A DNA stretch of 64,000 nucleotides from Candidatus Latescibacterota bacterium (GCA_965204725.1 OZ242005.1:3936001-4000000), one strand, 5' to 3'. Counted from the first letter of the stretch, positions 30,155 to 48,904 are shown. Numbers and translations: made by a program. The notes: generated by a model not told the origin, from the sequence alone.

Positions 30155-33100
30155 CTAGCAGCGTATGTTCTGTCGGGCTGTCGCAAGCCAAATCGCACAC
30201 AGCGGCACCACCAATACCAGCAACACTGAGGAGGACGCCAAGCCGCCCGAGGTCCCCAAGGCCAAAGTGTACCAGAAGTCGGTTTTTTCGCCTTGCAGCA
30301 ACATGGGCAGAAACCCAGCGATCGTCGTAAGGGTGGTGATGAAGATGGGGCGCAAGCGTTGAAAGGCCGCTTGGGCAATGGCCTCGGTGGGAGCGGTCGG
30401 CTGTCGCTTCAAGGTGGTGGAGATGGTGTAAACGAGCAGGATAGAATTGTTGACGGCAATGCCCATCAACAGCAACAAGGCCGCATAGCTGCCTTGGTTA
30501 AAAGGGGCGTCGGACAAAAAGAGCGCGGCACCCATCCCTATGAGCGCGAGGGGCAGGGCAATGAGCACCAATAGCGGCTGGGTCCAAGACTCAAAGAGCG
30601 CGGCGGCGACCATCCAGACCAAAAGAACCGCCAAAAGCACGACACCCCCCAGTTCTCGCCGCTCCTTTTTGTCCATCTCGTATATCATGGGATTGGAAAG
30701 GCTATAACCGTATGGCAGCGACGTGTGATCGACGATGTCTTGTAGGATGCTGTTAGAATAAGAGTAGCTTCCCAAAACCGTGAATCCAATGGTGCGGATG
30801 TAGCGTTGGTTTTCGCGTTTTATGCTGGGCGTCACGGCTCGTTTCTGAATGTGGGCAACGTGCCCGATGCGCGCTGGGTGTGCATCCAAAGCGACTTGGC
30901 TGAGGCGGCGGATGGTCATGCGACTGGCTCCGGTGTCGGCGACGCTTACAGCGTATTGTCGCCCGTCCATATAGACGTGTGCAAGAGCAGTGCCGACTGC
31001 GAGCCGATCTTGGATTTCATGTACGAGGTTGATGTGCCCTAGGCCGAGTGGCGCGGTTTTTCTATGGTCGAACTGGGCCACTATTTCGCGCTGGGACGGG
31101 CCATAGGCAAAGTCGATGTGAATGTCCTTAATCCGCCGCGAGCGACGCTGCTTTAGCTGCTTGGCAATGTCTTCGGCAATGTTGCCTACCTGCCCAAAGT
31201 TGAACCCATGGATACTAAGCTGGTTGGAAACGCTCCGGCTGCCCCCCAAATGCTTGCCGAACCCATCCATCCCCTTGCCATATACGGAGAACCCCACGCC
31301 GCCGATATTGCTCTCATAGGCCGCTAAACGTTCGTAGAGGATGTATGGTATATCCGAGGCGCGGTACTCTTCCTTTATCAGCACCTGAATAAGCCCGTAC
31401 TGACCCGAACTTTGGGTGATGATGCCCTCGATATACGGCGCGAAGTTGAACAATTGTTTTTCGACATCGCGCAAAACTTTGTCCATCCTGCTTATGTGGG
31501 AGTTATAGGGCATCTGGAGGGTGACGATCAGTGAGAAGCCCTCTGAGAGTTCGCGCAAAAGGTGCCGGGGAGGTTGTCGGTCGAGCCGGTGCGATAGATC
31601 GCGGAAGAGAAAATACGTCGCCCCGCCAACCACCTTGAAAAGCACCGGCTTGACCGCAGCCACTATGGGGTTGCTCCACACTTGGTTGTAGAGGTCGGCC
31701 CCGTCGTCGTAGAGCCGCTCCCAGAGCGGACGATCCTCTTGCGAGCTTTTAGGTAGGAAGGTCGTGCGGCCAAATAGGCTAGACGAAGCGGTTGTATCTC
31801 TCGTCGCAAGCCCCGCCTTGTACTGTTGTCGCGTGGTGATTTTGTCGGCGGACGCGGCCGGCACGAGTTCCCGCTTGTCGCCGAGTTCATCCGGCAATAT
31901 CCACAGCGGGACGCCCACCAACCACACGACTAAACCGAGAAACAGTACTTTGCGACGGACGCAAAAAGAGAGGACCGTGCGATACAAGCGGTAGATGCGG
32001 TCTGTGGGTGCAACCGGAACGATGGCCGACCGTGCGACCGTCTGGTAGAAGAAGGTCGGGATCAGGGTGAGGGCGACTAGGAGGGCGATGATGAGGGTTA
32101 GCCCTAGGGCCACTACAAACGGTTCGAAATAACCTTGTAATTCTCGGGAGAGGAAAAACACCGGCAGAAAGGCCCCCAAAGTGGTCAGGTTAGAGACGAC
32201 GATAGGATGAACCCCATCGCGCAATCCCGCGGCCACCGCCGCCCGCAAATCCCCTTCGGGGCCGCAGGATTGGGTGCGGCGGTGGAGATAGTCGTAGATG
32301 ACAATGGCGTTGTCCACGACCAGCCCAAAACCGATAGTAAAGCCGGCGAGGGTAGCGAGGTTTAGGTGAATGCCGAGGGCAAAGAACAACACGACTGCCC
32401 CTAAGACGGACAACCAGATGGAGCTCAAGATGAGCAAGACCGTTTGAAGCCGCCTGAAAACCCCGATCAGCACCAACGCAATAAACGCGATGGAAAAGGC
32501 CGACCAGCGCAGCAGAAAGCGGAAGTCCCGCTCTAGCTCGGCTCCCTTGTCGTGCAGTGCGATGATCTCAAAGCCCTCGGGCAGGTGCTGGGAGAGTTCG
32601 GCTACTTTCTCCCGGATGTGCTGGGAGGCGCGGATCATGTCGCTACCGGGTGTTTTTTCAAATTGGATGGCAATTGCGTTGCGCCCGTTGATTCGGTAGA
32701 GCGACGAAGGTGGGCCGGGCTGGTAGCGCACGGTCGCCACGTCCCCCGTGTACACGGGGCGGCCGTGCTCCAGCCGCTTGAGTGGCGCGTACTTGAGGGT
32801 CTCCAAGTCTGCGAGGTTGCCGCGAAGCTGGATGCTACTGAGTGTGCCTTGGCTCGGTGTCTCGCCGAGGAAACGGGTCTGGATGCCCTGAGCGGCTAGT
32901 GCTTGGCTCAGTACACCTTGGTCTATTTGCCAGTGCTGCGCCAAGAGGTGGTTCATTTCGAGGAGGATGTGCTGTTGGCTGCCGCCGCGCACGGTCACCT
33001 GCTCGACGCCCGGCACGGATTGCAAGGGCAGCCGCAAGTGCTCGTCTGCGTATTGGCGCAGGACCGCGGAGTCTTCGCGGCCAAGGAGCATTAAACGGAC

Positions 33101-33514
33101 GAAGTTTGGGTTGTTCAGCTGATCGGGATCGGTGTGCTGAATGCGGGGCGGCGAAGCACCGAGCGGCATTTGGCGGCGGAACGAATACACCTTTTCGGCT
33201 AGTGATAGCTCGGCCAGTTGTATGTCTGTATCGGGCGCGAATTCAGCGGCGATGTACGCACGCCCCTCGGAACTGGTTGAGCTCAACAGGACCACGCCCC
33301 GCAGACTCTGCACGAGCGACTCCAAGGGCGCGGTAATCTGCGACTCAACGGTGAAAGCAGAAACCCCAGGCCACTCAACGCTCACGGTGAGTTGGGGAGC
33401 GTCTAATGGGCCGCCGATGTCAATAGGTACCAGCCGAAAACAAACCAGCCCCAATGCCAACACCGCCACTCCGGCTACGCCCACGGTCACGGGCCTGTCC
33501 AGCAACTTGTGCAT
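30155..33514 (-). CDS. RND efflux permease subunit
   Basis: GLVVDNAIV, GIAVNNSILL, RLRPIFITTLTT; 12-TM layout with a mid-protein insertion. Confidence 0.92.
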   Translation of the reverse strand: MHKLLDRPVTVGVAGVAVLALGLVCFRLVPIDIGGPLDAPQLTVSVEWPGVSAFTVESQITAPLESLVQSLRGVVLLSSTSSEGRAYIAAEFAPDTDIQLAELSLAEKVYSFRRQMPLGASPPRIQHTDPDQLNNPNFVRLMLLGREDSAVLRQYADEHLRLPLQSVPGVEQVTVRGGSQQHILLEMNHLLAQHWQIDQGVLSQALAAQGIQTRFLGETPSQGTLSSIQLRGNLADLETLKYAPLKRLEHGRPVYTGDVATVRYQPGPPSSLYRINGRNAIAIQFEKTPGSDMIRASQHIREKVAELSQHLPEGFEIIALHDKGAELERDFRFLLRWSAFSIAFIALVLIGVFRRLQTVLLILSSIWLSVLGAVVLFFALGIHLNLATLAGFTIGFGLVVDNAIVIYDYLHRRTQSCGPEGDLRAAVAAGLRDGVHPIVVSNLTTLGAFLPVFFLSRELQGYFEPFVVALGLTLIIALLVALTLIPTFFYQTVARSAIVPVAPTDRIYRLYRTVLSFCVRRKVLFLGLVVWLVGVPLWILPDELGDKRELVPAASADKITTRQQYKAGLATRDTTASSSLFGRTTFLPKSSQEDRPLWERLYDDGADLYNQVWSNPIVAAVKPVLFKVVGGATYFLFRDLSHRLDRQPPRHLLRELSEGFSLIVTLQMPYNSHISRMDKVLRDVEKQLFNFAPYIEGIITQSSGQYGLIQVLIKEEYRASDIPYILYERLAAYESNIGGVGFSVYGKGMDGFGKHLGGSRSVSNQLSIHGFNFGQVGNIAEDIAKQLKQRRSRRIKDIHIDFAYGPSQREIVAQFDHRKTAPLGLGHINLVHEIQDRLAVGTALAHVYMDGRQYAVSVADTGASRMTIRRLSQVALDAHPARIGHVAHIQKRAVTPSIKRENQRYIRTIGFTVLGSYSYSNSILQDIVDHTSLPYGYSLSNPMIYEMDKKERRELGGVVLLAVLLVWMVAAALFESWTQPLLVLIALPLALIGMGAALFLSDAPFNQGSYAALLLLMGIAVNNSILLVYTISTTLKRQPTAPTEAIAQAAFQRLRPIFITTLTTIAGFLPMLLQGEKTDFWYTLALGTSGGLASSSVLLVLVVPLCAIWLATARQNIRC

Positions 33515-33515
33515 G

Positions 33516-36500
33516 TCAGTCTCTCGCCCGAGCGACGACCGAGTAGAGAATGGGGACGGCGATCAGGATCAACAAGGTTGATAGAGAAATGCCGCCGACA
33601 ACCGCCCACGCCAAGGGACGGCGCAACTCGGCGCCACTGCCGCTAGACAAGGCCATGGGCAACAAGCCGCAGACCGTGGTCAAAGTCGTCATGCAGATGG
33701 GGCGCAAGCGCTTTTGTCCGGCTTCCACGATGGCTTGGCCTAGGTCGCCGCTGGCCCGGTAGTGCCGGTGGATAAAATCGGTTTTGACGATGGAATCGTT
33801 CACTACAATTCCCACGAGGACGATACATCCCAACAAGGACATGATATTTAGTGAGTTACCCGTTAGCCACAGGGTACAGACGACCCCAATGGACGCGAGG
33901 GGCACGGCCACGACGATCACAAAAGGAACGACGAGGGACTCAAACTGGGCGGCGAGAATGAAATAGACCAATACGATGGAAATGGAGAGAATGAGGTACA
34001 GGTTTTGATAGTGTCCCTGCAACTCGGTGTGCTGGGTGCCGATCTCAATCCAGTATCCGGCGGGGATGGCTAGCTGGGGCAGGAATTCGTTTAGCCGAGC
34101 CTTGGCTTCGGCAAAGTCGAGGCCCTGTAAGGAGGCCGTGACGGCGACGGTGCGTGCTTGGTTTTCGCGGTGGATGGCTTCGTAGCCCTCGCTCGGTTTG
34201 AGGCGGACCAACTGAGCAAGCGGAACGGCGACAAGGCGGCCTTGCGTTCTGACTGGGTACTGCATGTTGAGGACGCGCCACAAGTCGAGTTCGGCGCGGT
34301 GCTCAGCTCGCACCTTGATGTCTATGCGATCGGCAAAATTGACGAACTGGGTGGGCGTACTGCCTTGTAGTTGGCGGTTGATAAAGTCGGCAAGTTCGGC
34401 GAGGCGGATGCCGTACTGTAGGGCCGCTTCCCGCTGTACCTCGACGTTGAACACTTGCTTGCTGGCCTGCAAATTAGCGCGGGCGTTGGCAAAGCCGGCG
34501 TCCCGCTGCATAAAATCTGTGATCCGCTGGCTCAAATCGGCGAGGACGGTTAGCTGCGGCCCGATAATTTTCAAGTCGAATTGAGTCTGGTGCTGCTGAA
34601 AGAGCTGCTCAAAGGCCGATTCCGGTGGCGACAGGGAGAGGGTTAGGCGACTGAACTCCCCAAAGGCCGCTTCGATCCGCTCGGCGACGTTTGCGCTTTC
34701 GCGGCCCTCGGCAATCTCGATGTCTAGCACCGCTTTGTTCAGTCCGAGTCGGTACTGTCGGTCGAGGATTTCGCATGTGATGCCGATGGATGAGAGCACG
34801 GACGCGACGCCGTCCTCGCGCAGCAGGCGGCGTTCCAGTTTGGTAACTTCCGCCGCAGTGGTCGGCAGATTGGTCCCTGGCGGCAGTTCGGCGCGGAGGA
34901 CTAAATGCTTCCTATCGACGGTGGGTATGAGCTCTCGCTCTAGATCGGTGGCTAGATAGGTACTCAGTGCAAGGAGGACGAACAGTGTGCAGAAGACTTT
35001 CCAGCGATGGCGCAGGGCGCGGACGAGGCCGTACTCGTACAGCAAGAAAAACTTATTGAACAGGTATTGAAAGAGGTCTATGGTGAGGAGGAAAGGGGTG
35101 GCTGCTACGCGCCCAATGCGGTAAAGCCGCCCCGTTGTATTAGGTGCGTTCCAAGACCGAGCCGACAGCATGGGCAGTAGCATGATCGACACGATCAAAG
35201 AGGCTGCCAACGCCAGAGAGATGGTGACGGCCTGCTCGTAAAAGAGTGCCCCAGCGATCCCTTTGACGTACACCAAGGGCATGAAAACCGACATGGTGGT
35301 AAGGGTCGAAGCCGTGATGGCCAAGCCCACCTCGCGGGTGCCGCGGACTGCTGCTTCGCCCGGATCGTGAGACATTTCGCGGTAGCGGTAGATGTTTTCC
35401 AGCACGACGATGGAGTTGTCAACTAAGATGCCGATGCCTAAGGCGAGGCCCCCCAACGACACAACGTTAAAGTGGATGTCGAGAAAGTACATACAGATAA
35501 AGGTGGCAATAATGGAGATCGGTATGGACAGCCCCACGATGAGCGGGTTTTTGAGATCGCGAAGAAAGTAAATGAGAATGACAAAGGCAAAGAGTCCGCC
35601 CAAGTACAGAGATTGTAGGACGTTGTGTATGGATTCGCTGATGAACTCGGCTTGGTCGAAGACCGGCACGACGTCGAAGTCCGCGTACTCTTGCGAAAAG
35701 CGATAGAGGCTGTCATACACTTTTGCGGAGGCTTCCACGGTGTTGGTGCCGGCCTCCTTGAACACATACAGGGTAATAACTTCGTGTCCATTCAAACGGG
35801 TGTAGCCGGTGCGTTCCGCATAGCCTTCTTCGACGCGGGCCACGTCCTGTAAGCGGATTAGTTTGGGCGTTAGCTGCACCGGGGTTTGGCGGATTTGTTG
35901 TACGTCGGTGAACTCGGCTTGTATGCGCAGGGGAAACTGGGCAAAACCGTCGCGGATCGAGCCGCCGAAGTGGGTTATGTTGAACTGCTTGAGACTGGAT
36001 TCCACCTCTGCAAAGCCGACGTTATAGCGCAGGCTTTTCTCGGTGTCGAGATGGATTTGGATCTCGCGGTCTAGCCCGCCAGCGACCTGCACGTAGGCCA
36101 CGCCATCGATCTGCTCTAACCGGCGTTTGACGACGGCCTGCGCCACTTCCTTCAGTTCCATGAGGGCGGCTTGGTGGTCCCAGGTGGAGCGGGGCTGTTC
36201 GACCCGATCGCCGGTGACCACGAGCGTCATAATGGGGGCGGCCGAAGGATCGAAGCGCAAAATGGTAGGGCGGCCGGCCGTTTGCGGCAGGTGGCCTTGA
36301 TCGAGGCTGCTGCGTGCCTTGATGAAGCTGAGGTCCATGTCGCTGCCCCAGTTGAACTCGACCTCGACAAAAGAGATGCCGTCTTGCGAGATGGACTTGA
36401 GCCGCCGTACGCCGCTTATGGTGCTGAGAGATGCTTCGATGGGACGGGTGACATGTTCTTCTACGTCGCGGGCACTTAGGCTGGGTGCGTCCGTGCGGAC

Positions 36501-36638
36501 GATGAGCCGGGGAATGTCGATGTCGGGGAGGAAATCTACGCCTAGCCGAGAGAGAGAGTATAAACCCAAGAGGAGCGCGGCGAGAAAGCAAACCGTAGTG
36601 GCCACGGGTCGATAGACGGCAAAGCGCACGATACGCAT
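33516..36638 (-). CDS. RND efflux permease subunit (second paralogue)
   Basis: Start MRIVRFAVYRPV at 36638; GILVDNSIVVLENI, GIVVNDSI, RLRPICMTTLTT. Confidence 0.93.
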   Translation of the reverse strand: MRIVRFAVYRPVATTVCFLAALLLGLYSLSRLGVDFLPDIDIPRLIVRTDAPSLSARDVEEHVTRPIEASLSTISGVRRLKSISQDGISFVEVEFNWGSDMDLSFIKARSSLDQGHLPQTAGRPTILRFDPSAAPIMTLVVTGDRVEQPRSTWDHQAALMELKEVAQAVVKRRLEQIDGVAYVQVAGGLDREIQIHLDTEKSLRYNVGFAEVESSLKQFNITHFGGSIRDGFAQFPLRIQAEFTDVQQIRQTPVQLTPKLIRLQDVARVEEGYAERTGYTRLNGHEVITLYVFKEAGTNTVEASAKVYDSLYRFSQEYADFDVVPVFDQAEFISESIHNVLQSLYLGGLFAFVILIYFLRDLKNPLIVGLSIPISIIATFICMYFLDIHFNVVSLGGLALGIGILVDNSIVVLENIYRYREMSHDPGEAAVRGTREVGLAITASTLTTMSVFMPLVYVKGIAGALFYEQAVTISLALAASLIVSIMLLPMLSARSWNAPNTTGRLYRIGRVAATPFLLTIDLFQYLFNKFFLLYEYGLVRALRHRWKVFCTLFVLLALSTYLATDLERELIPTVDRKHLVLRAELPPGTNLPTTAAEVTKLERRLLREDGVASVLSSIGITCEILDRQYRLGLNKAVLDIEIAEGRESANVAERIEAAFGEFSRLTLSLSPPESAFEQLFQQHQTQFDLKIIGPQLTVLADLSQRITDFMQRDAGFANARANLQASKQVFNVEVQREAALQYGIRLAELADFINRQLQGSTPTQFVNFADRIDIKVRAEHRAELDLWRVLNMQYPVRTQGRLVAVPLAQLVRLKPSEGYEAIHRENQARTVAVTASLQGLDFAEAKARLNEFLPQLAIPAGYWIEIGTQHTELQGHYQNLYLILSISIVLVYFILAAQFESLVVPFVIVVAVPLASIGVVCTLWLTGNSLNIMSLLGCIVLVGIVVNDSIVKTDFIHRHYRASGDLGQAIVEAGQKRLRPICMTTLTTVCGLLPMALSSGSGAELRRPLAWAVVGGISLSTLLILIAVPILYSVVARARD

Positions 36639-36649
36639 GGCCGGTGCTC

Positions 36650-37816
36650 TCAGCGTTGGACGACCACGACCTTGGCGTCGTGGGCTAGATTGTAGTGCCC
36701 GAATACGATAAGTTCTTCGCCTGCTTCTACCCCTTCGGTAATCTCGATAAAGTCGTCGTTTTCGAGGCCGGTCTTGACGTAGCGCCATTGGGCTAGCCCG
36801 TCTTGGTGGATGAACACTAGCTTGCGGTCGTCGCGGGTTAGGAGCGCGTCGCGCGGTATGAGCAGCCGCTGCTGAAAGGCTTCGACGCCGATTTCGAGCC
36901 GGGCGAACATACCGGGTTTGATGCGCCGGTCGGGGTTGGCCACTTGGATCAAGATGCGGCAAGTTCCGCTTTCACTATCGACTACCGGACTGATGGCTTT
37001 GACCGCACCCACAAACGAGTCGTCGGGATACGCGTGCAACGCGATGGTTGCTTGGGCACCGACGTGTAGCAGGCGCAGTTCGCTTTCGAGGCTGCTGACT
37101 TCGAGCAGCAGCGGGTCGAGTGCCAAAAGCTGCATCAGGGACTGGCCTTGGGTGACCCAAGTGCCGAGGGTTACTTCCACTTCGGTAACAGTGCCGACAA
37201 AAGGTGCTGTAATAACTGCATTTTTGCGGTCGAGGTCGGCCTGCTTCAGGGCGAGTCGAGCGCGGGTTAGGCCCGTAGTGCTGGCGATCCATTCTTTGGG
37301 GGTGCCGCTGGCAAACAGCGATAGAGCTTCTACGTCGTTGATGTTGGTGGTGTCGGCTTTGGTCTTGATGAGGTCGCGTGCTTGGTGCCCGCGGTCCAAT
37401 TGGCCGCTCAACAAGGCTATGGAGGCGTATTCCCGTAGGGCGCGCGTCATCTGGTCCTTTGCCTGTAGGTACGCGATGGCATAGCGTTCCGCGTCTAGCT
37501 CCAAAATAGTATCTCCCTTGCTGACGAAGCGACCTTCCTCGACGTTGAGGCGGCGCACTTGGCCGGCTATTTGGGAGACGATAGCCGTCTCCATTTTGGC
37601 CTTGAAGACGCCTGTCGAGGTGATTTTCTGAACGAGGTCGCGGTGCTGGACGGTGTCTATGGCGACCGGAGTGTTGGGTGGTTCAAGTTCGGGGAGAGTG
37701 TCGAGGGATTCATCGCGGGGATTTTGCGATGGCGCGGAATCGCTGAAAATCGCAAATAATAGGGTGAGTAGCCCAAGCGCGAGAGCGATATATAGGAGTT
37801 TCTTTAGTGTCGTCAT
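36650..37816 (-). CDS. RND periplasmic adaptor (MFP)
   Basis: N-terminal TM, VEEGRFVSKGD, ITAPFVG, IKPGMFA. Confidence 0.92.
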   Translation of the reverse strand: MTTLKKLLYIALALGLLTLLFAIFSDSAPSQNPRDESLDTLPELEPPNTPVAIDTVQHRDLVQKITSTGVFKAKMETAIVSQIAGQVRRLNVEEGRFVSKGDTILELDAERYAIAYLQAKDQMTRALREYASIALLSGQLDRGHQARDLIKTKADTTNINDVEALSLFASGTPKEWIASTTGLTRARLALKQADLDRKNAVITAPFVGTVTEVEVTLGTWVTQGQSLMQLLALDPLLLEVSSLESELRLLHVGAQATIALHAYPDDSFVGAVKAISPVVDSESGTCRILIQVANPDRRIKPGMFARLEIGVEAFQQRLLIPRDALLTRDDRKLVFIHQDGLAQWRYVKTGLENDDFIEITEGVEAGEELIVFGHYNLAHDAKVVVVQR

Positions 37817-38892
37817 TTTGTAAGCTCGCGATCTTTGCCATGGACAAGATCAACGCTCAGTTGCGATCTGCTCAAGGTTTGAGAGTGAGCGGCTAGAACA
37901 TCTAGGGCCTTCCGTTCTTGGATGGCGATGGCGTGAAGCCGGGCCTGAATGCGCGGGATTAGCCTTGGCGTCTCCTTGACTACGCCTTTGAAGCACAGAT
38001 TTTTGGCGACAAACCAACTCTGAGAAATCGACTCGAATTCCCGGCCGAGAGCACTTAGGCCATCAAGGCCGCAGATCCGACTCGCATAGTGGAGAAAGGC
38101 ACCGTGTCCTTCTCGGTTCAGGGCGATCTCGAGGAACAGTTCAGTACATTGATTCAGGCGTGTTTTGAGAAGTTGCTTTTCGCATTCCGTCCATATTTCT
38201 ACGTCCTCGGCGAGCTGCTCAATCCCGGCCACGCCCGGTACGCAATTGGCCCGTATGCTGGTTGCAGACATACTGGCGATATTGCGTTGCAGAATGGCGA
38301 CTACATGGCGCAGACGCACCCTAGGCGGCTCGTCCGGTACGTCTAGCCAGAGCCAGTCAAAGCAGGGCTGGTCCGCGCCAGCAATAGCCCGCGTGTCCCA
38401 ACACGATAGAAAGAGGTCCAAGGGGATGTCTCGCGCCGAAGGCTGCCACGGCGAAGGATCTATCAAATGAACGGTCCCAGCCCCATCATCATACCCGGCG
38501 ACGATGCACTGATGGTCTGAGTGACGCTGGCGCGGATAGAACCCGGCTCCCGCTAGATGGAAGACGTCTAGATTGATGGATACAGGCGCATCTGCATCCA
38601 ATCGTTTTTTGACTTGGTTCCACGCCGCCCTACCATCATCAGAAGTCTCGTCGAATGGCTTAATGCCGAACCGCTGGATCATGGAAAAGAGGGGAGCTGG
38701 GCGACTCCTGATGTTGAACGATTCGCCTCTAAAGTAGAAAAAGTCCCAGTTGTAAAAAGCGGGCAGCGACGGTTCCCATTGGTAGTAGCGCAACAAGCTG
38801 TCGAGCATGACGTAGAGGCAGTTGTAGTGCCGATTAGTGCAGAAGGGAATACCGCTAATGCGCTTTTTCACAACGAACCTGCTTCTTGACAC
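37813..38892 (-). CDS. BtrH-like papain-fold protein (putative acyl-ACP transferase or peptidase)
   Basis: NCLY, PVSINLDVFHL, HSDHQCIVAGYDD, LIDP (Cys-His-Asp pattern); helical C-terminus; near an ACP gene. Confidence 0.75.
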   Translation of the reverse strand: MSRSRFVVKKRISGIPFCTNRHYNCLYVMLDSLLRYYQWEPSLPAFYNWDFFYFRGESFNIRSRPAPLFSMIQRFGIKPFDETSDDGRAAWNQVKKRLDADAPVSINLDVFHLAGAGFYPRQRHSDHQCIVAGYDDGAGTVHLIDPSPWQPSARDIPLDLFLSCWDTRAIAGADQPCFDWLWLDVPDEPPRVRLRHVVAILQRNIASMSATSIRANCVPGVAGIEQLAEDVEIWTECEKQLLKTRLNQCTELFLEIALNREGHGAFLHYASRICGLDGLSALGREFESISQSWFVAKNLCFKGVVKETPRLIPRIQARLHAIAIQERKALDVLAAHSQTLSRSQLSVDLVHGKDRELTK

Positions 38893-39524
38893 AAGGTCAA
38901 CGCGAATATGTGCATGGATGGATTATCCGGCATTACGAGATGCGATAGCAGCGGAGTTTCTTTCAATTCAATTACCTGATGCCAGATTCCTGCTTCAATA
39001 AGCGTCTCCTGCATCTGGTAGTCCTCGCCCGGCGGGGTTATGCCGAAGAGGAATACGTGGGGAGTGAGACTATCGGGAGAGATCAGTTGGCCCATAAATG
39101 CCTCGCGCTCTCCGTACTGAAGCCCTTTGTAATGCGAGGCGTCACTGAGCCCGAGAACTGCTTGAGTGCGGGAACCGTCCGGCGAGTGCAACAGGACGAT
39201 TTCGGCCGTGGCCCGCCAGTCGCATAGCCCCAGAACGTGGAGGGCGCGATAGCGTCCTATTGGCAGTGGGGTTTCTTGCACCTCGCAGGCGATGTTGTCG
39301 TGCGCTCCATCGCTTTTATCTGGAAAAACAAACGATGTGCCGTTGCAACGGACGGTCGCTCCCGACGCCGGGAGATCCTCCGCCCGAAGGATCGTCCCCA
39401 TCCCGTCGAGTCCGTCGGCGGCTGGGTCGCAGGAAGAGGCGATGCCGGCGTTGTTGAAATAAGGTGCTAGGTTCACAGTTACTTGACCATTAGATCGCAT
39501 ATCTGTTTCCGTTTTTCCACTCAA
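38868..39524 (-). CDS. Hypothetical beta-rich (possibly jelly-roll) protein
   Basis: LAPYFNNAGI, FVFPD...DNIAC, LPIGRY..LHVLG, MHIFALTL; overlaps both neighbours. Confidence 0.6.
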   Translation of the reverse strand: MSGKTETDMRSNGQVTVNLAPYFNNAGIASSCDPAADGLDGMGTILRAEDLPASGATVRCNGTSFVFPDKSDGAHDNIACEVQETPLPIGRYRALHVLGLCDWRATAEIVLLHSPDGSRTQAVLGLSDASHYKGLQYGEREAFMGQLISPDSLTPHVFLFGITPPGEDYQMQETLIEAGIWHQVIELKETPLLSHLVMPDNPSMHIFALTLCQEAGSL

Positions 39525-39793
39525 GGCATAGGCGATCGGGCTGCCAACCGCTGTTCTATGTATGAGGTCAAGGTCCGAACTGAATCGAATAGGTCCACCC
39601 GCAGCTCTTCGTCCTCCACTTCAAACCCGAACTCTTCTTCAAGGGCAAAGACGATCTCTAACGCGGCAATGGAATCGGCGTCTAAACCCTCGCCAAATAG
39701 GGACTCGTCATCGGCGATGTCCTCGGGATTGATCTTGAGTTGGAGCCCTTGGACGAGGGCTTGTTTCACTCGTTGAGCTATATCGTCGCGCAT
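39521..39793 (-). CDS. Acyl carrier protein
   Basis: 90 aa, acidic; LFGEGLDADSIAALEIVFALEEEFG with the phosphopantetheine Ser. Confidence 0.9.
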   Translation of the reverse strand: MRDDIAQRVKQALVQGLQLKINPEDIADDESLFGEGLDADSIAALEIVFALEEEFGFEVEDEELRVDLFDSVRTLTSYIEQRLAARSPMP

Positions 39794-41685
39794 GGCTGCG
39801 CCTCTTCCTCGGCAAAGTAGTTGATGACCACCTCGATAGCCCGATGGACATCCGCTTCGTCTGCAATGGATACTGCGGGAAGGCCGAACGTCTGTTCCAA
39901 GCGATTCAGTTTGTCGCGCACCTCGGCCGCGGTCATGGGTCGCGGTTTAATAGAGGTTCGGCCATAGGCCGTGCGAATGTGCTTCGCTTGATTGCTCATG
40001 GCCAACAGGAGCGTCGGTGCTTGGCACAGGGCGCGAATGCCGTTGATGGTGTCTTGGATGTAGTCGTCAGTGTCCACGCTGTTGACCACCAATAGGCAGG
40101 CTTGGGGCTTGACGCCCATCAGGAACGCAAGGGTCGGCAGCGTATGGGTCTGCTGTTCCTCTACGTTATAGGGCACCGTGCCCGATTGAGTGCCGACTAA
40201 AATTAGGTCCGGCCGCTTGCGGTGGTTGATTTCCCGTATCTTGGCGTCGAGATAGAGCGCGTAGTAGTCTAGCGGCATCTCAATGGACGCCGCGTAGCCC
40301 ATGGGGAACGCGCATTCCATGCCAAAGAGGGCCGAGTGGTGTTCGGTGCCGATTTGCCCTATCTGGTAGCCTAGTTCCAGCAGCCGGCGGCGCAGGGCGA
40401 GTTGTAGGGTAAATTTACCTTGCTGTGAGCTGGTGCCTGTGACAGCTAAGACCGGCACATCCACTTGGGGCCAGTACTCGGCCGAACGGAGGGTTTGCCG
40501 TATTTCTTTGGAGGACAACGCTGGATAGTATAGCCGCAGGCCCTTGGCGTCAGCCTGTTCGTACAGACCGGCGTACCGCTCGTGCGGCAGGGCCAAGAGG
40601 CTGAATACATGGACGCCTTGGTCTATGGCGGTTTGAACGGCTTCGCGCAGCAGGTCTCTTTTGCGGATGCGGCTAAGTTCGTCCATATAGCCCAAAACGA
40701 GGGTATCGGCACCCCGTAGGGAGGCGGTCAGGCTGGGGGCAATCGGCAGGCCCGCTGGCGGCAGACCAATGGCCTCGCCCGCGTCTTGGCCAACCAAGCC
40801 CTTGCCGACCAGATCGCCGACCCCGACGATCTCAAAGCCGAGCAGGTCACGCCCGCGCACCAGCGAGTGCATCTCCTTGTTGTAGGGATAGAGGGCGGCT
40901 TTCTGAATGTGGGCGAACGAGTCATCAGCATGGGACAGAGAAGTGGTTTTGGGCACGGTGGTGCGGGCAGCTTCGGGTTGAGCATGCGTGCGGAGGATTT
41001 CGCGCACCTGTGCTAAGCCCACCTTGGGATGAGTTTGGCGGATGAGGGTGAGCAAGCCGGTGATGTGGGGCGCGGCAAAGCTGGTGCCCCTCAGCATGAC
41101 CTCGGGCGGCTCCAGCCAGCACAGCCGCTGGAGATCGCCCCAGGCCACGCACTCGATGGCGGCTCCTTGGCGATAGTAGTAATCGCACAGCCCCTGCAAT
41201 AGCCCCGCGCCCACGCCGATGACTTGGGGTAAGTGGGCCGGGTAGCTTTCGCGGCCTTCTTCGTGATCGGCGGCTACCATTAGAACGCCTTGGTCTGCGG
41301 CCTGTTGGCAGATGCGGGCCAAGGCGTCGCGCTGCGTTACTTCGGTGGTGCCCAAACTCAGGTTGATGATGTCTATACCTTGGTCTAAGGCCCATTCAAT
41401 GGCCTTGACTAGCAAGCGGTTGTCGGCTTGTAGCAATTCATCGAAGATGCGGACGCTGTAAAGATCCGCCTCGGATGCTTTGCGACGGATGATGCCGGCG
41501 CAGGCCGTGCCGTGGCCGGCGCAATCGGCGTGATCGGCACTTTGGCGGATCGCGCCATCTGGCCCGATAGTGAGGGCGACGCCACCGGCTATTGGGCCGA
41601 TTTTGGGGTGATTGGGCACGAGGCCGCTATCGACGATAGCGACTTTGACGCCGTGGCCGGTATGGTTCGCAAGGGAAAAGCTCAT
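39778..41685 (-). CDS. S8 subtilase fused to a DUF1611/TIGR04066-like P-loop domain
   Basis: VAIVDSG, GHGTACAG, GTSFAAP triad; then YPYNKEMH, GTSSQQGKFTLQL, VGTQSG; no signal peptide; ATG 41685. Confidence 0.82.
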   Translation of the reverse strand: MSFSLANHTGHGVKVAIVDSGLVPNHPKIGPIAGGVALTIGPDGAIRQSADHADCAGHGTACAGIIRRKASEADLYSVRIFDELLQADNRLLVKAIEWALDQGIDIINLSLGTTEVTQRDALARICQQAADQGVLMVAADHEEGRESYPAHLPQVIGVGAGLLQGLCDYYYRQGAAIECVAWGDLQRLCWLEPPEVMLRGTSFAAPHITGLLTLIRQTHPKVGLAQVREILRTHAQPEAARTTVPKTTSLSHADDSFAHIQKAALYPYNKEMHSLVRGRDLLGFEIVGVGDLVGKGLVGQDAGEAIGLPPAGLPIAPSLTASLRGADTLVLGYMDELSRIRKRDLLREAVQTAIDQGVHVFSLLALPHERYAGLYEQADAKGLRLYYPALSSKEIRQTLRSAEYWPQVDVPVLAVTGTSSQQGKFTLQLALRRRLLELGYQIGQIGTEHHSALFGMECAFPMGYAASIEMPLDYYALYLDAKIREINHRKRPDLILVGTQSGTVPYNVEEQQTHTLPTLAFLMGVKPQACLLVVNSVDTDDYIQDTINGIRALCQAPTLLLAMSNQAKHIRTAYGRTSIKPRPMTAAEVRDKLNRLEQTFGLPAVSIADEADVHRAIEVVINYFAEEEAQPCATI

Positions 41686-42170
41686 GGGCCTGCCCCCGCG
41701 TCTGTGGCGACTGGGAATCTGGCCGCCTGCCAAGCTGGCCAACCGCCCGTCAGAACATAGACTTCACTGCGGATCGACTCTTTGACGAGCCGCTTGGCTA
41801 GTGTGTAGCTGCTCCGGCAACCGCCTCCTGAACAGTAAGTGATGACTCGGGTGTCAGCCGGGTAAGACGCCAGTGTTTGGCGCAAGCTATCCGCAGAAGC
41901 ATGGGAAGGCAGGTGCAATGCTCTAGGGATATGACCGTCCTCATAAGCGTGCGTTGAGCGTGCGTCCACAAACACTACGTCGCCTTGGTCGAAAGCCTGC
42001 TTGGCCACGGGCACGGCCAGCCGATGAACGCCCTGCATGGCCCCAAGAGTCACATCGGCCTCTAGTTCCGCTATAGAGAACTGCTTGGTATAGAACCAGA
42101 TCACCCATGCGCTGCCAGCCAGCACGACCAGCCAGAGGATCAGCCCCATTCTGAGTAGCAGGCGGCTCAT
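41682..42170 (-). CDS. Membrane-anchored rhodanese-like protein
   Basis: TM helix; FVDARS...GHIPRA, YCSGGGC, LTGGWPAW. Confidence 0.85.
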   Translation of the reverse strand: MSRLLLRMGLILWLVVLAGSAWVIWFYTKQFSIAELEADVTLGAMQGVHRLAVPVAKQAFDQGDVVFVDARSTHAYEDGHIPRALHLPSHASADSLRQTLASYPADTRVITYCSGGGCRSSYTLAKRLVKESIRSEVYVLTGGWPAWQAARFPVATDAGAGP

Positions 42171-42181
42171 GCGGTTTGCTC

Positions 42182-43921
42182 CTAGGCAGCCTCTTGCTGG
42201 TGGTGAACAAACTGGGTGTAATAGCCCGGCTGTTGGCGCAGCACTTCCGGCGGCCCCTGCTCGACCACTTGACCGTTGGACAGGCAAATCACCTCATCCA
42301 CACCTTGTACCGCACTGAGCCGGTGGCTAATTAAGAGAATCGTTTGGTCGCGGTATAGGTGCTGGATGCGCTGGAAGAGGGCGGCCTCGCTTTCGGAGTC
42401 GAGTGCTGCGGTGGCTTCGTCCAAGATAAGCAGGTCCACTGGTTGCAGCAGGGTGCGAGCTAACGCAATGCGCTGGCACTGGCCGCCGGAAAGTTGGACG
42501 CCCTGTTCACCGATTTCCGCCTGCATGTCCAAGCCATTTAGCCCCACTTGCTCGCTCACCCGTTCGACTTCCGCTGGCTCGCACTTGAAGTTCCCGTAGA
42601 GGATGTTGTCTCCTACCGCATCGTTAAGTAGATGAACATGCTGACTGACTAAGCCGATGTGCGCTCTCAATTCGCGCAGGCTTATCTCTTCAAACGGCAC
42701 ACCGTCTATAAGGATGCGGCCTTGATCCGGCTGATAGAACCCACACAACATATTGGCTAGAGTTGTCTTGCCACTGCCGCTCATGCCGACTAAGGCGTAG
42801 CTTTTGCCCTTGACGAGCTTCAGGTTCACACCCTGCAAAATAGATTGGTCTCCGAAGCGGAAGTGAACATCTTGCAGTTCAATGGTGTGCTCATAGACGA
42901 AGGATTTGTGGCCGTTGTGCATCGCCTCTTGAGTGGGCAACTGCATGAATTCCAACACCCGTCGCATAGAGACCAAGCCCCGCACTAAGTCCATGTACAA
43001 ATCGTGTAGTCCGCTAACCGGACCAAACAAACGCGAAGTGTACTGAAGAAAGGCAATGAGAGTTCCGATCGTCATCGCGCCCTGCATTACTTGATAACTG
43101 CCCCAGCCCATGATGAATACTGGAGTTAGAGCCACTAGCCCCGACGAAATCGTGCGCATGGAAGCCGAGTATAGCACGTTGCGCATGGAGAATACGATCA
43201 GATCGTTAAGGGCCGAGCGAAAGCGATGCCTTTCATAGCTGTCGCTGTTGGAAAGTTGTATCAACGGGATGTGACTAAACCGCCCGATAACATAGCTAGA
43301 AAGTTTGGCCCCTTGTTGCTGAATGGATTCGACGACCCTTCTGATCTTGGGCTGAAAATAGAGCAGATTCGCCACAAATAAGGGGAGGACCACGATGGAA
43401 AGCAGAAAAAGGGTGACATCCAGCCAGCACAGGACGGCCACGAGACCTATCAAGGTCAGTACGCTATGTAGAAAACGCATGACACTTGCCGTCAACACCG
43501 ACTGGATTATGCCCACATCGCTGTTGAGGCGGAAGACGATGTCGCCGACGGTATGTCGATGGTGGAATCTGAGCGGCAAGTGCATGAGATGCTGGAACAG
43601 TTCGACGCGGATGTTCCGGACGATGCGGTTGCCGGCCCAAGCGTACAGGTAGTCAGAGGCGAAGGATAGGATCAAACGGGTGATGGTAATACCTAGTAGG
43701 ATGGCGAGGGCAACCAGCAGTGGGTAAAGCTGTTTGGCTGGCACAATTTTATCAATGACGGTTTTTAAAATGTAAGGAGGTGCTAGAGAACCGACTGTGA
43801 TACACAGTACACAGAACAGTACCACAATCCCTTGATACCAATAAGGAATTAGAAAATGCAGGAAAAAGCCGATAGTAAACCGGGCTGTTTTAGTTTTAGG
43901 CGTAGGCATGAGAGATCTCAA
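42182..43921 (-). CDS. ABC exporter (TMD+NBD half transporter, no C39 domain)
   Basis: GMSGSGKTT, LSGGQCQR, LILDEAT, ISHR; alternative start ATG 43909. Confidence 0.93.
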   Translation of the reverse strand: MRSLMPTPKTKTARFTIGFFLHFLIPYWYQGIVVLFCVLCITVGSLAPPYILKTVIDKIVPAKQLYPLLVALAILLGITITRLILSFASDYLYAWAGNRIVRNIRVELFQHLMHLPLRFHHRHTVGDIVFRLNSDVGIIQSVLTASVMRFLHSVLTLIGLVAVLCWLDVTLFLLSIVVLPLFVANLLYFQPKIRRVVESIQQQGAKLSSYVIGRFSHIPLIQLSNSDSYERHRFRSALNDLIVFSMRNVLYSASMRTISSGLVALTPVFIMGWGSYQVMQGAMTIGTLIAFLQYTSRLFGPVSGLHDLYMDLVRGLVSMRRVLEFMQLPTQEAMHNGHKSFVYEHTIELQDVHFRFGDQSILQGVNLKLVKGKSYALVGMSGSGKTTLANMLCGFYQPDQGRILIDGVPFEEISLRELRAHIGLVSQHVHLLNDAVGDNILYGNFKCEPAEVERVSEQVGLNGLDMQAEIGEQGVQLSGGQCQRIALARTLLQPVDLLILDEATAALDSESEAALFQRIQHLYRDQTILLISHRLSAVQGVDEVICLSNGQVVEQGPPEVLRQQPGYYTQFVHHQQEAA

Positions 43922-44607
43922 AGATCGGCTAAGATATGGCGGCCTTTTATAATGTCTAATAGGGACACGCCCTCCAGCGTTTTTAACGGCGAATCGGCGA
44001 AGCTGGCGGTCTTAATCTCAAGAGCCGGTAGGTGAATAGAGATGAGTTTCCAGAAAAAGAGTTGGGTGAATTGTTCTCGACCAACTAATGGGTAGTGGCA
44101 CTGGAGAATGGTCTGGCGTTCGTCAACGAGAAAAATCGCCGGCGTCCGCTCGAAGAGAGCCGCATAATCTTCCTCATAGTCCTGTATGGTTCCCACTTGG
44201 TATTTGAGCTTGAACGCCCGTGAAAATTGAGCAGCAGCCGATGGCACTGAGGACAGCGCATAGATGGGCAGTTGAGCTGGATTTTCTATATGGTCATAGA
44301 CATGTTGTAGAGTCTCTAATACTATTTCCAAGCATGGCTGACAGGAAGAGGGATTGAAGAGGACGACGATACAGCCTTGGGTTCCGGCGAAGTTGGTGTG
44401 CAGTGTGTCTTCTTTGACTTGAAATGGGATCGAGGGAAAAGACTGGCCAACCCATTGGCTAGCTTTGAAGGTGCTGATGGCGTAGGTGCGGTAATTCCGC
44501 ATATCTACGAGATAGATTTTGCCGAACCAAGCTACTACGGTAGTCAGGGCGACGAGTTGTAGTAAGTTGGTGGCGACCAACAGCTTCAGTAGTATTTTAT
44601 GTTGCAT
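43918..44607 (-). CDS. Membrane-anchored thioredoxin-fold protein
   Basis: TM helix, VVLFNPSSCQPC, RTPAIFLVD; probable ATG 44607. Confidence 0.7.
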   Translation of the reverse strand: MQHKILLKLLVATNLLQLVALTTVVAWFGKIYLVDMRNYRTYAISTFKASQWVGQSFPSIPFQVKEDTLHTNFAGTQGCIVVLFNPSSCQPCLEIVLETLQHVYDHIENPAQLPIYALSSVPSAAAQFSRAFKLKYQVGTIQDYEEDYAALFERTPAIFLVDERQTILQCHYPLVGREQFTQLFFWKLISIHLPALEIKTASFADSPLKTLEGVSLLDIIKGRHILADL

Positions 44608-44699
44608 GGTAGCAACCGACGATTTGGGTGGCCCGGTCCCAGTGCTGGGACCGGACCGCTGCATGACCAAAGTATGGGCCTTGAAGTTAGAGGCCGATC

Positions 44700-44897
44700 C
44701 TAGCACTTATCGCTCGTTTTGGTTGCGGGAGGAGTGCAGTCATCCCAAATATCCCAGTAATCTATTACGCACTCGTACTCTTCCGTACAAGCGTCGAAAT
44801 ACACTAACTCCCAGTCGCCCCCGTGAGAGCCCTCACGCTCGTAGGCCTGAACCAAGGCGGTGCGCCTGTTTGGGGTTTTCTTGCTGAGTGTTTTCAT
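44700..44897 (-). CDS. Putative RiPP precursor peptide (65 aa)
   Basis: AAGGAG RBS 7 nt before ATG; MKTLSKKTPNRRTALVQAY-EREGSHGGDWELVYFDACTEEYECVIDYWDIWDDCTPPATKTSDKC. Confidence 0.75.
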   Translation of the reverse strand: MKTLSKKTPNRRTALVQAYEREGSHGGDWELVYFDACTEEYECVIDYWDIWDDCTPPATKTSDKC

Positions 44898-44969
44898 GAG
44901 ATTGCTCCTTAGTAAAGAGTGATGAATGATAGAACCAAGGCCCATAATACTGGTTCGTGATAGGATATC

Positions 44970-46130
44970 TTAGTTTATATCAAAGGACAGCGTATATGTC
45001 TCGACCGTGCCATTGGATATCTCCGCCCTTTCACTCGACGGTTCTCTCCATATATACAGATGCCCCTGCCAAGCGGCGACACTGTTCCAAGGGGCCATGT
45101 TGGACACGAGAGACTCTACCTTCGCTCTATCGAACGTATATGTCTCCATGTTAGACGAAGAGGTAAGATCGTAAAGTATCCACCATTGTGCATCTCTAGC
45201 CACTTGGTGAGAGACAAATAGATACCGATCGTCTATTAGGGTCATGTTTTTGAGCGTGGTCATCTCCAATCCATACATACCCTCAGACGAACCTCGCCCG
45301 ATGCTATGGTAGCGTTCAGGCAAGGAGACGAAGCCCTCTGGGCGCAGACCAAACTGCCGGATGATCTGTCCGGTGTCGGCGTCGATTTCCTTGACGAGGT
45401 AGTCGTTGGGGCCCAAGTAATACAGCCGATGCCGCGCTGGACTGTAGCGCACTTGGGCAAACGCGTTCATGCGGAAGGAGACAAACTGCTGTTCATCGGT
45501 GGACAGGGGGGTGCGATAGAGCGGTTCCCAAGTCGTGGGATCCAAACTCTGTATCTCCATGATCTTCATCGGGTTTGTTTTCAGCAGAAACACTTCGCCC
45601 GCCCGGCCGATTAAAAGCCGACTTCCCTTGAACGAACGCGTCCCATCTATGTACTGCCCTTGACGATCATAACGGACGATCTGGCCGAACGTCTTGTCAA
45701 GGATATATAGCCGGCCGTGTGAGTCTATGGCCATATTTCTAGGGGAACCATACTCGCCAGGGCCGCGTCCTTGCTGGCCAAAGGAGCGAATATAATGTCC
45801 ATCCGTGCGGCTAAACTCATGGGCTTGGTCACCGATGCTATCCGTGATCAGCAAGGTGCCCTCTGGCGAGAAGCTCAGCCAGCGTACACGTCCGATACCC
45901 GGGGAGTCCTCATCAAAGGCGAGTTCGATCTGCTGTTGAAAAATCACGTCGACCTCGCCGACATATTCAACGGGCGTTTGCGAAATGTTGGTCTCATCGA
46001 CTTCGCCGACTTGGTAGGCGGTGTACCACGCTTTGACGCTGTCGCGGATGTCGCTCCACAGTCCGGCGTCGGCTGCCGTGCTACCGAGGGCGACGAGGAA
46101 TGTGCAGATGTGAAAATTTCTGGCGTTCAT
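44970..46130 (-). CDS. Secreted 6-bladed (NHL-like) beta-propeller
   Basis: Signal peptide; FGQQGRGPGEYGSP..MAID..GRLYILD..YDRQG. Confidence 0.82.
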   Translation of the reverse strand: MNARNFHICTFLVALGSTAADAGLWSDIRDSVKAWYTAYQVGEVDETNISQTPVEYVGEVDVIFQQQIELAFDEDSPGIGRVRWLSFSPEGTLLITDSIGDQAHEFSRTDGHYIRSFGQQGRGPGEYGSPRNMAIDSHGRLYILDKTFGQIVRYDRQGQYIDGTRSFKGSRLLIGRAGEVFLLKTNPMKIMEIQSLDPTTWEPLYRTPLSTDEQQFVSFRMNAFAQVRYSPARHRLYYLGPNDYLVKEIDADTGQIIRQFGLRPEGFVSLPERYHSIGRGSSEGMYGLEMTTLKNMTLIDDRYLFVSHQVARDAQWWILYDLTSSSNMETYTFDRAKVESLVSNMAPWNSVAAWQGHLYIWREPSSERAEISNGTVETYTLSFDIN

Positions 46131-48846: not shown

Positions 48847-48904
48847 GGATCCACCTTTTATGAGTTCGGGTATCCTGCTGCTAGTCCCGCTAGCCGATTC
48901 AAAA

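Follow-up and report, generated by a model that had tools for sequence, protein, structure and literature searches.

A candidate leader-peptide maturation and export operon without radical SAM enzyme in a Latescibacterota genome, with possible acyl transfer through a dedicated carrier protein

How might a ribosomal peptide be matured by a carrier protein and a papain-fold enzyme, with no radical S-adenosylmethionine (SAM) enzyme? This question is raised by a 12-gene operon located at 30155-46130, on the minus strand, of a stretch of 64,000 nucleotides from a Candidatus Latescibacterota bacterium. This stretch, hereafter the window, corresponds to positions 3936001-4000000 of a 5.43-Mb genome (94% complete) whose nearest named relatives are metagenome-assembled genomes of Candidatus Latescibacterota, and it was found in sponge metagenome runs (13 in 6 studies). 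From the sequence alone, the operon had been read as a new system for a ribosomally synthesised and post-translationally modified peptide (RiPP), with a leader like that of the clostridial CLI_3235 clusters and an acylation machinery. By its gene content, it appears to be a new radical-SAM-free variant, in a diderm host, of a peptide maturation system flagged by bioinformatics. The reading preferred here, held at somewhat less than even confidence, is that of a leader-dependent, RiPP-type production and export operon in which acyl transfer would run through a DUF1611 domain, an acyl carrier protein (ACP) and a BtrH/AziU3-AziU2-like pair, with no radical SAM enzyme; that the peptide itself is acylated is a hypothesis. 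The genes are, in order of transcription:

44970-46130, minus: secreted six-bladed beta-propeller-like protein (DUF5128, 43.8 bits; DUF4934; TolB_like)
44700-44897, minus: precursor peptide of 65 aa (Shine-Dalgarno motif, leader profile, database homologues)
43918-44607, minus: thioredoxin-fold CQPC protein with an N-terminal membrane anchor (ResA/TlpA-like, profile A4)
42182-43921, minus: half-type ABC exporter, MsbA/HlyB-like (ABC_membrane and ABC_tran)
41682-42170, minus: rhodanese-domain protein with an N-terminal membrane anchor (Rhodanese, 68.3 bits)
39778-41685, minus: fusion of an S8 protease and a DUF1611/TIGR04066-like protein, predicted cytoplasmic (Peptidase_S8, DUF1611_N, DUF1611_C)
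39521-39793, minus: dedicated ACP (PP-binding, PF00550, 40.8 bits)
38868-39524, minus: AziU2-like protein of 218 aa (profile A2 against PDB)
37813-38892, minus: BtrH/AziU3-like papain-fold protein (BtrH_N, DUF4872, Peptidase_C39_2)
36650-37816, minus: membrane fusion protein of the resistance-nodulation-division (RND) type (TIGR01730, 196 bits for a cut-off of 94.9)
33516-36638, minus: RND transporter 1 (ACR_tran, 739 bits)
30155-33514, minus: RND transporter 2 (ACR_tran, 405 bits)

A radical-SAM-free operon and its relatives

All 12 genes of the sequence-only reading were recovered in an uninterrupted run of open reading frames (ORFs) that overlap or nearly abut each other. The CQPC gene stops at 43918 and the ABC gene starts at 43921; the corresponding stop and start positions are 41682 and 41685 (rhodanese, fusion), 39778 and 39793 (fusion, ACP), 39521 and 39524 (ACP, AziU2-like), 37813 and 37816 (BtrH-like, membrane fusion protein), and 33516 and 33514 (RND1, RND2). 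Two starts were corrected, that of the CQPC protein (most likely 44607, giving 229 aa) and that of the fusion (41685, giving 635 aa). Every ORF is intact, with conserved catalytic residues, and family scans of the Pfam and NCBIfam type found no other small-molecule biosynthetic genes in the operon. A search for the CxxxCxxC motif in all ORFs of 80 aa or more that overlap 27000-49100, 60 in number, was negative; given this, the 12-ORF run and the family matches, what had been observed from the sequence was considered correct.

The absence of a radical SAM enzyme was examined at the scale of the genome, where PF04055 matched 16 places, none of them in the island. The nearest are MoaA (16628-17677), the only one in the window, and a sulfatase maturase 62 kb away. 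No CcpM, the maturase of the clostridial clusters, was found in the genome: the best TIGR04068 match (82.4 bits for a cut-off of 500) is an anaerobic sulfatase maturase (TIGR03942, 527 bits), and MoaA was weakly matched. It had been pointed out that a CcpM-like enzyme encoded elsewhere, under the same promoter boxes, would turn the operon into a split known system. This candidate was rejected, as no radical SAM gene lies under such boxes genome-wide.

Related loci are designated by L numbers (17 from named genomes, 59 from a scan of the phylum), and tallies were made regardless of their kinship. Loci of the phylum scan extended from 9 kb upstream to 11 kb downstream of the fusion gene start. 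A radical SAM gene was scored upon a tblastn hit with E<1e-4 to any of four queries, or upon a CxxxCxxC motif in an ORF of at least 200 aa. Such genes were present in 3 of the 17 loci from named genomes (L004, L010, L013), in 4 of the 59 loci of the phylum scan (L142, L183, L189, L190), and in none of the nine orthologous loci L133-L141, which have the gene order of the window operon. The sister clade L004/L142, overlooked in the sequence-only reading, carries a SCIFF/PapB/QhpD-like SPASM enzyme of the thioether type (TIGR03906, 228 bits) just upstream of the propeller gene; its fusion enzyme is 61% identical to that of the window and its precursor has 3 Cys. On the strength of these tallies and of this clade, the radical SAM enzyme is an optional accessory of the family, and its absence here an inherited state of the clade and no local accident.

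Conservation of the other parts was evaluated in the same loci. Of the 59 phylum loci, 45 have an ACP gene at most 400 nt from the fusion gene, and 8 more have one at another place in the 20 kb covered. BtrH-like genes, which fall into two types, were found in 38 loci and AziU2-like genes in 11; 27 loci have the former and lack the latter. Synteny extends to the whole operon in L003, L134-L137 and L139 (57-95% protein identity). In L140 and L141 the fusion gene is separated from the ACP gene by those of the membrane fusion protein and RND pumps, and L133 is degraded, with a partial ABC gene and neither CxxC gene nor precursor. The fusion accompanied by an ACP was detected in 85 of 168 genomes of the phylum, where one genome may have as many as 7 copies, and relatives of the fusion occur in KSB1, Ignavibacteriota, Myxococcota, Clostridia and gut metagenomes. 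The S8-DUF1611 fusion and its own ACP form the constant core of this large family, in most cases together with a papain-fold protein of the BtrH type.

The genome holds a second S8-DUF1611 gene, split into two parts 1.09 Mb apart: L153 (4843040-4844281) encodes residues 5-420 beside two ABC genes, and L154 (3754276-3754911) residues 417-629, followed by an ACP gene, an AziU2-like gene and a partial BtrH-like gene. The split stems either from misassembly or from a rearrangement that breaks the gene. In a common sub-type, represented by L007 (7206-13225), L160 and L166, the precursor is long, has no Cys and starts with a leader of the same type; TPR, CPBP/Rce1-like and GNAT genes lie 5' of the fusion gene, and a divergent BtrH-like gene comes after the ACP gene. 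A fusion fragment 47% identical to that of the window (L016) lies on a 1.6-kb contig labelled as a Thermoplasmatota archaeon; this label is probably a binning error and not the sign of an archaeal copy.

Precursor, fusion enzyme, carrier protein and partners

The precursor gene has a strong ribosome-binding site (AAGGAG, 8 nt 5' of the ATG), and its product was without match in the family scans. A hidden Markov model (HMM) of the leader, built from 4 sequences and then from 15, gave matches with E-values of 1e-9 to 1e-15 in 12 other loci. The leader begins with a basic N-terminus; an aliphatic-x-A-Y motif ends at residue 19, and the segment from there to about residue 29 contains, in this order, an acidic residue, a Gly and a Trp. 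Mean pairwise identity between precursors is 43% up to the Tyr of A-Y and 22% beyond: the family combines a conserved leader of roughly 19-29 aa with a hypervariable core, mostly of even Cys number, which in the window has 4 Cys and is rich in Cys, Trp, Asp and Glu. ORFs of this leader type stand beside the fusion enzyme in L003, L004/L142, L006, L134 (two), L135-L138, L140 (two) and L141, so that the small ORF, whose conservation had been left in question, proved to be conserved in other genomes next to the same enzyme. Remoter matches were found in L007/L008/L160/L166 (Cys-free cores), L189/L190 and the gut-metagenome loci L102/L103. A profile search of 5.8 billion proteins returned 15 precursor homologues at E<=0.01, none of them named; the closest (P0125, P0134, P0137) are conserved up to the Trp and keep an acidic aromatic C-x10-C loop, and the two shorter ones have lost both outer Cys together. 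By these sequence features (gene-encoded precursor, conserved leader, variable core, adjoining enzymes), the operon corresponds to the genetic definition of a RiPP. The proposed CLI_3235 type of the precursor was not retained: the window peptide and 4 relatives gave no TIGR04065 match even at E<=10, and the L102 peptide none at E<=0.01.

Among 30 distinct precursors, the number of Cys after A-Y is 0 (2 sequences), 2 (7), 3 (4), 4 (11), 5 (3) or 6 (3), and is thus even in 21 of the 28 cores that contain Cys. As the sequences are related, this parity was considered as a tendency and not as a test. Together with the ResA/TlpA-like CQPC protein described below, it lends support to the disulfide bonds proposed from the sequence. 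The propeller protein encoded next to the precursor has a signal-like N-terminus. It is 37-47% identical to its counterparts in the closest relatives, and the peptide about 41%, versus 80-95% for enzymes and pumps together and 80-93% for the enzymes alone; L003, L134 and L140 each have a duplication of the propeller-peptide cassette. Their fast co-divergence provides natural cognate pairs for studying specificity, be it in immunity, chaperoning or reception.

In the fusion enzyme, the protease half was assigned to family S8 (Peptidase_S8, 94.2 bits) with D19, H58 and S202 invariant. Its best named match is QhpE (NF049966), at 146.8 bits for a cut-off of 165. The other half matches DUF1611_C (PF07755, 47.0 bits, cut-off 25), as had been anticipated, and DUF1611_N (PF17396, 28.4 bits, cut-off 22.6); it consists of a Rossmann and a P-loop domain, has a weak PDB match (2g0t), and carries an invariant GTSxQQGK loop that we take to be comparable to that of DTBS/CobQ. 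The Asp, His and Ser of the protease and the P-loop Lys are invariant in 14 sequences. The relation to TIGR04066 was borne out in part: the alignment covers positions 2-360 of the 361 of the model (E 2e-33; fusion residues 281-644), but the score is 115.9 bits for a cut-off of 200 (91.9 bits for the L102 relative, 86.2 for L019). The DUF1611 half thus appears homologous to TIGR04066 and outside the curated equivalog. Both domains are present in 120 of 120 fusion homologues among the matches listed. A query made of the DUF1611 half only retrieved 1193 representative clusters at E<=0.001, and among the best 150 of these, about 111 (hand count) are of 550 aa or more with the match in their C-terminal half. 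The fused form is the common one.

The ACP has the PF00550 domain and an invariant Ser41, the phosphopantetheine site, in 15 sequences down to 22% identity, and the genome encodes one phosphopantetheinyl transferase. Its assignment to TIGR04069 did not hold: no match was obtained at E<=0.01, where 17 families were matched, nor was the 70-bit cut-off reached. The best match in the NCBIfam-type scan is a generic phosphopantetheine-binding model (51.6 bits); the L102 ACP gave a weak TIGR04069 match (17.7 bits).

The next gene had been read as hypothetical, and its relationship to AziU2 had escaped notice. No family of the library scans matched the 218-aa protein; profile A2 (13 orthologues), compared with PDB, retrieved Azi28 (8gs1_A, E 5.2e-19) and AziU2 (7wuw_A, E 6.4e-19), the match extending over the full length (positions 9-203 of 203). 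In one database entry (P0231), an ACP and an AziU2-like domain are joined in a single protein. The neighbouring papain-fold protein was confirmed as BtrH-like by PF14399 (BtrH_N, 46.6 bits, cut-off 29.7) and by DUF4872 (PF16169, 34.5 bits, cut-off 28). C18, C25, H124, H127 and D145 are invariant in its profile A3; these domains and residues are those of the BtrH transacylase family, in which the catalytic Cys and His would be found among the ones listed. Azi29/AziU3 is the only significant solved relative of A3 (E 1e-7), with an alignment limited to positions 99-293 (about 195 residues). The two adjacent genes, homologues of the two subunits side by side, would thus encode an AziU2/U3-like pair.

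The redox and export genes complete the operon. C-Q-P-C is invariant in profile A4 (10 orthologues), which in PDB matched 2m72 (thioredoxin-like, E 9e-10) and ResA (E 5e-4); AhpC-TSA/Redoxin was matched by 5 of the 10 members, and the window protein had no Pfam match. Its single N-terminal hydrophobic segment would place the thioredoxin fold outside the cytoplasm, as in proteins of the ResA/TlpA type. The Y-C-x4-C loop of the rhodanese (C113, C118) is invariant in profile A7 (n=12: both rhodaneses of the window, of which the second is described below, and 10 relatives). The ABC exporter has no peptidase (C39) domain according to the family scan. RND1 is 91-93% identical in close relatives, RND2 is its paralogue (about 25% identical), and the membrane fusion protein and both RND genes are kept in orthologous clusters.

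Proposed maturation and rival explanations

The operon was compared with four known systems. Firmicute clusters are described in PMC10731318 (SacP23) and PMC4573289 (Roseburia) as containing a precursor, an ABC transporter, a TIGR04068 radical SAM enzyme, TIGR04066, TIGR04069 and a subtilase. The window operon shares with the CLI_3235 system, known from clostridia and Paenibacillus, a small precursor that is rich in Cys and has a short leader (for SacP23, 19 aa are predicted in PMC10731318; here A-Y ends at residue 19), a subtilase, a DUF1611/TIGR04066-type protein, a carrier protein and an ABC exporter. It differs in having no radical SAM enzyme, in the fusion of protease and DUF1611, in its diderm host, and in additional parts, i.e. 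the AziU2/U3-like pair, the periplasmic thioredoxin-fold protein and rhodanese, the propeller, the RND pump and a two-component regulation. Given the content of the Firmicute clusters and the scores below cut-off, the clostridial relation was upheld for the TIGR04066-type homology and the parts list, and not for the curated family definitions. The leader may resemble the 'MKKLxKK...EAY' pattern of that system, as the sequence-only reading had proposed. The gut-metagenome locus L102 links both systems, with a SPASM enzyme, an ACP, two leader-type peptides and an S8-TIGR04066 fusion. As to product chemistry, SacP23, the only product isolated from a cluster of the TIGR04066/04069 type, has m/z 3404 for a predicted 4455 and a blocked N-terminus, Edman sequencing having failed, according to PMC10731318; by analogy this would fit N-capping or cyclisation, though the SacP23 cluster also has a radical SAM enzyme.

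BtrH (butirosin) and CtaG (closthioamide) are described as carrier-protein-dependent papain-like transacylases (PMC7183216, PMC12865890). The window operon resembles BtrH/BtrI and CtaG/CtaE/CtaH in its BtrH_N and DUF4872 domains, conserved Cys/His/Asp and adjoining carrier protein, and differs in lacking an ATP-grasp or adenylating loader, in its presumed acceptor, a ribosomal peptide, and in its AziU2-like partner. According to PMC12559475, AziU3/U2 is an aziridine synthase whose reaction displaces a sulfate; the enzyme shares the fold of the papain-like ligase CtaG (PMC12865890). With this azinomycin enzyme (Azi29/Azi28; 7WUW, 8GS1) the operon shares adjacent homologues of both subunits. Unlike the aziridine pathway, it has, as judged by family scans of its genes, no sulfotransferase and no amino-group carrier protein; its partner is an ACP, and an ACP-AziU2-like fusion exists. 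The N-terminal, Cys-bearing region of the BtrH-like protein matches BtrH_N from residue 25 and is unaligned to AziU3. In the Qhp system, QhpC is the peptide, QhpD the radical SAM enzyme, QhpE the subtilase, QhpF the ABC exporter and QhpB the propeller. Common to both are a cytoplasmic subtilase, a peptidase-less ABC exporter and a small peptide rich in Cys, Asp, Glu and Trp encoded beside a propeller; the window operon is unlike Qhp in having no radical SAM enzyme, haem subunit or QhpG, a propeller outside the QhpB family, hypervariable cores and an ACP. The literature searched held nothing tying DUF1611 to RiPPs and no account of what TIGR04066/DUF1611 and its carrier protein do; what was found on TIGR04066, TIGR04068 and TIGR04069 included no biochemical work on these proteins.

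From the gene identities, conserved residues, co-occurrences, precursor architecture and absence of radical SAM genes observed above, we infer the following course of maturation, including its acyl chemistry (thiotemplated transfer) and disulfides. The PAS kinase and NarL-type regulator encoded upstream would switch on three box promoters. The cytoplasmic fusion enzyme would bind the precursor via its conserved leader, which the S8 domain would cut off. DUF1611, the holo-ACP and the BtrH/AziU3-AziU2-like pair would then carry out a thioester-templated acyl transfer onto the peptide, most likely capping the new N-terminus, or alternatively cyclising the peptide. The ABC exporter would move the peptide into the periplasm, where the CQPC protein and the YCxxxxC rhodanese may form two disulfides (C43-C54 and C37-C65 are suggested) and the cognate propeller would bind it as an immunity protein or chaperone. 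The membrane fusion protein and two-RND pump would finally expel the product, no radical SAM enzyme acting in this branch. A more specific version, which we regard as doubtful, has DUF1611 use ATP to load a carboxylate on the ACP as a thioester and the papain-fold BtrH/AziU3-like enzyme, helped here by its AziU2-like partner, pass it to the amine freed by leader removal. With the same reserve, the carboxylate may come from an acyl or an aminoacyl group, or from the peptide itself, giving an N-capped or a head-to-tail cyclised product. If true, this would bring the carrier logic of nonribosomal peptide synthetases to a ribosomal product and define a new, radical-SAM-independent RiPP class, common in Latescibacterota and present in several other phyla. 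A carrier protein tailoring a ribosomal peptide via a papain-like transacylase would be a new enzymatic logic for RiPP biosynthesis, and could also account for the blocked N-terminus of SacP23. S8-DUF1611 with an ACP is abundant, and the window operon is a clean radical-SAM-free example; because of its intact precursor, single regulator with boxes and complete export route, it is a good entry point to the reaction.

Several observations weigh against acyl transfer within a RiPP pathway. The operon encodes no known ACP loader (ATP-grasp, adenylating enzyme, acyltransferase); the loading role was given to DUF1611 for this reason and for its P-loop, and is a guess, the weakest link of the proposal. 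DgcN, a DUF1611 protein, would be an acetyl-CoA-dependent N-acetyltransferase, but the literature searched gave no backing for this. The only solved relatives of the AziU2/U3-like pair form aziridines by displacing sulfate and with no acyl transfer (PMC12559475). The leader HMM matched in only 12 of the 59 phylum loci at E<=0.01, and a universal link between enzyme and precursor is therefore not claimed; the Cys number is odd in 7 of the 28 cores. Of the curated families, TIGR04065, TIGR04069 and TIGR04068 were unmatched, and TIGR04066 and QhpE stayed below their cut-offs. An outer-membrane channel gene is absent from the operon, the 13 runs carrying the stretch include no RNA run, and the co-occurrence tallies overstate their support since related sequences are not independent.

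The lack of loader or acyl-chain-building genes that would point to a peptide substrate is also what gives credit to two functions encoded side by side, an explanation that we judge improbable. An unmodified, disulfide-bonded bacteriocin or signal peptide would need only the S8 protease, the ABC exporter and the redox pair, while DUF1611, ACP and AziU2/BtrH would serve a separate small molecule or lipid exported by the RND pump. BtrH, CtaG and AziU3/U2 all work in non-ribosomal pathways, and the small share of loci with a recognisable precursor points the same way; however, protease and DUF1611 form one polypeptide in most of the best 150 representatives and in every homologue listed, the ACP gene is adjacent in 45 of 59 loci, Firmicute clusters join the same parts with a precursor, and the operon holds no other small-molecule genes. 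The best named match of the S8 domain, QhpE, raises instead the case of a peptide that, once cross-linked, stays firmly attached to its cognate periplasmic propeller, either as a small subunit or as a partner that bears a cofactor, as in quinohemoprotein amine dehydrogenase, where QhpC joins QhpB after cleavage by QhpE and export by QhpF. The peptidase-less exporter, the composition of the core, the duplicated and fast-diverging propeller-peptide cassettes and the QhpD-like SPASM enzyme of the sister clade are in its favour. The propeller matches no QhpB model, haem subunit, QhpG and radical SAM enzyme are all absent here, and a secreted product agrees better with an RND pump that is conserved and cores that are hypervariable. 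A bound subunit seems less probable still than two separate functions.

The relationship of both subunits to AziU2 and AziU3, their best solved relatives, would also accommodate a non-acyl displacement or cyclisation, on the peptide or on an ACP-bound unit, that yields a reactive warhead, the functional assignment as aziridine synthase being that of PMC12559475. This is quite unlikely in view of the missing sulfotransferase and amino-group carrier protein, of the BtrH_N match with invariant Cys/His/Asp, of the restricted alignment with AziU3, and of the 27 loci with a BtrH-like but no AziU2-like gene. Least credible, and very improbable, is that the operon is in decay, left over from a radical-SAM-dependent system after loss of the maturase, and makes no product any longer. 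The SPASM enzyme of L004/L142 does stand where the window has its second rhodanese, L133 is visibly degraded and the second fusion gene of the genome is split; yet 12 of 12 ORFs are intact with conserved catalytic residues, the same radical-SAM-free layout recurs in the six syntenic loci, and radical SAM genes are absent within 9 kb upstream in all of L133-L141 and from 55 of the 59 phylum loci.

Regulation, limits of the island and flanking genes

The limits 30155-46130 of the sequence-only reading proved too narrow, as promoter boxes, a kinase/regulator pair and further genes, overlooked there, extend the functional unit to 27420-49020:

47773-49020, minus: histidine kinase (PAS, HisKA_3 and HATPase_c, from Pfam)
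47126-47776, minus: NarL/LuxR-type response regulator (Response_reg and GerE)
46878-46927, minus: promoter copy of rhodanese 2 (perfect 18-nt box 46878-46895, degenerate box 46912-46927)
46263-46742, minus: second membrane-anchored rhodanese, with a CxxxxC loop (Rhodanese, 57.8 bits; profile A7)
46185-46235, minus: promoter boxes of the operon, two perfect 18-nt palindromes (from the sequence)
28477-30153, plus: M10-type metalloprotease with a type IX secretion system sorting tail, between the 269-aa gene and RND2
27420-28368, plus: third box promoter (box 27420-27437 with 1 mismatch, and a degenerate box) and gene of a 269-aa secreted protein

The operon box reads ATCAGGTGATCACCCGAT on the minus strand and is present in two copies 33 nt apart, upstream of the propeller gene. 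The promoter of rhodanese 2 is near-identical to that of the operon over about 110 nt. Allowing up to 3 mismatches, boxes were found genome-wide (5.43 Mb) only in the window, at 46185, 46218, 46878, 27420 and 28360, the last one being a weak box with 3 mismatches located 5' of the metalloprotease gene. Boxes also precede the operon in L003, L133, L134 and L135, and homologues of the kinase and/or regulator lie 5' of the clusters in L133-L137 and L140. The response regulator is the presumed binder of the palindromes, and we infer that the pair and the boxes define a regulon at 27420-49020. The true start of the kinase is probably downstream of the listed TTG.

The 269-aa protein is Trp-rich, its gene starts at 27559 on the plus strand, and no Pfam, NCBIfam or other family matched it; a homologue (62.6% identity) is encoded in another genome (G148, L195) 3' of RND2 and on the same strand. 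Whether the M10 metalloprotease belongs to the system is uncertain; it was not beside the cluster in the 4 relatives checked.

The slot between regulator and propeller genes is variable. It holds rhodanese 2 in the window, the SPASM radical SAM enzyme in L004/L142 (L004 1796-3403), and a GNAT acetyltransferase in L133 (5651-6328), L135 (3435-4085) and L138 (1786-2460).

The island is flanked by a penicillin-amidase-family (Ntn hydrolase) gene at 24817-27294, as it is in G148 (86% identity). The gene resembles PvdQ only faintly (41 bits for a cut-off of 950), and its product might possibly act as a periplasmic de-acylase if the peptide were N-acylated. Genes beyond 49020 and before 24817 are of the housekeeping type. 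Molybdenum cofactor and aldehyde oxidoreductase genes at 16628-21167 (MoaA, MadB/MadC-like AAA and VWA proteins, XdhC-like factor) and xanthine-dehydrogenase-family genes at 50564-53765 are unrelated to the operon.

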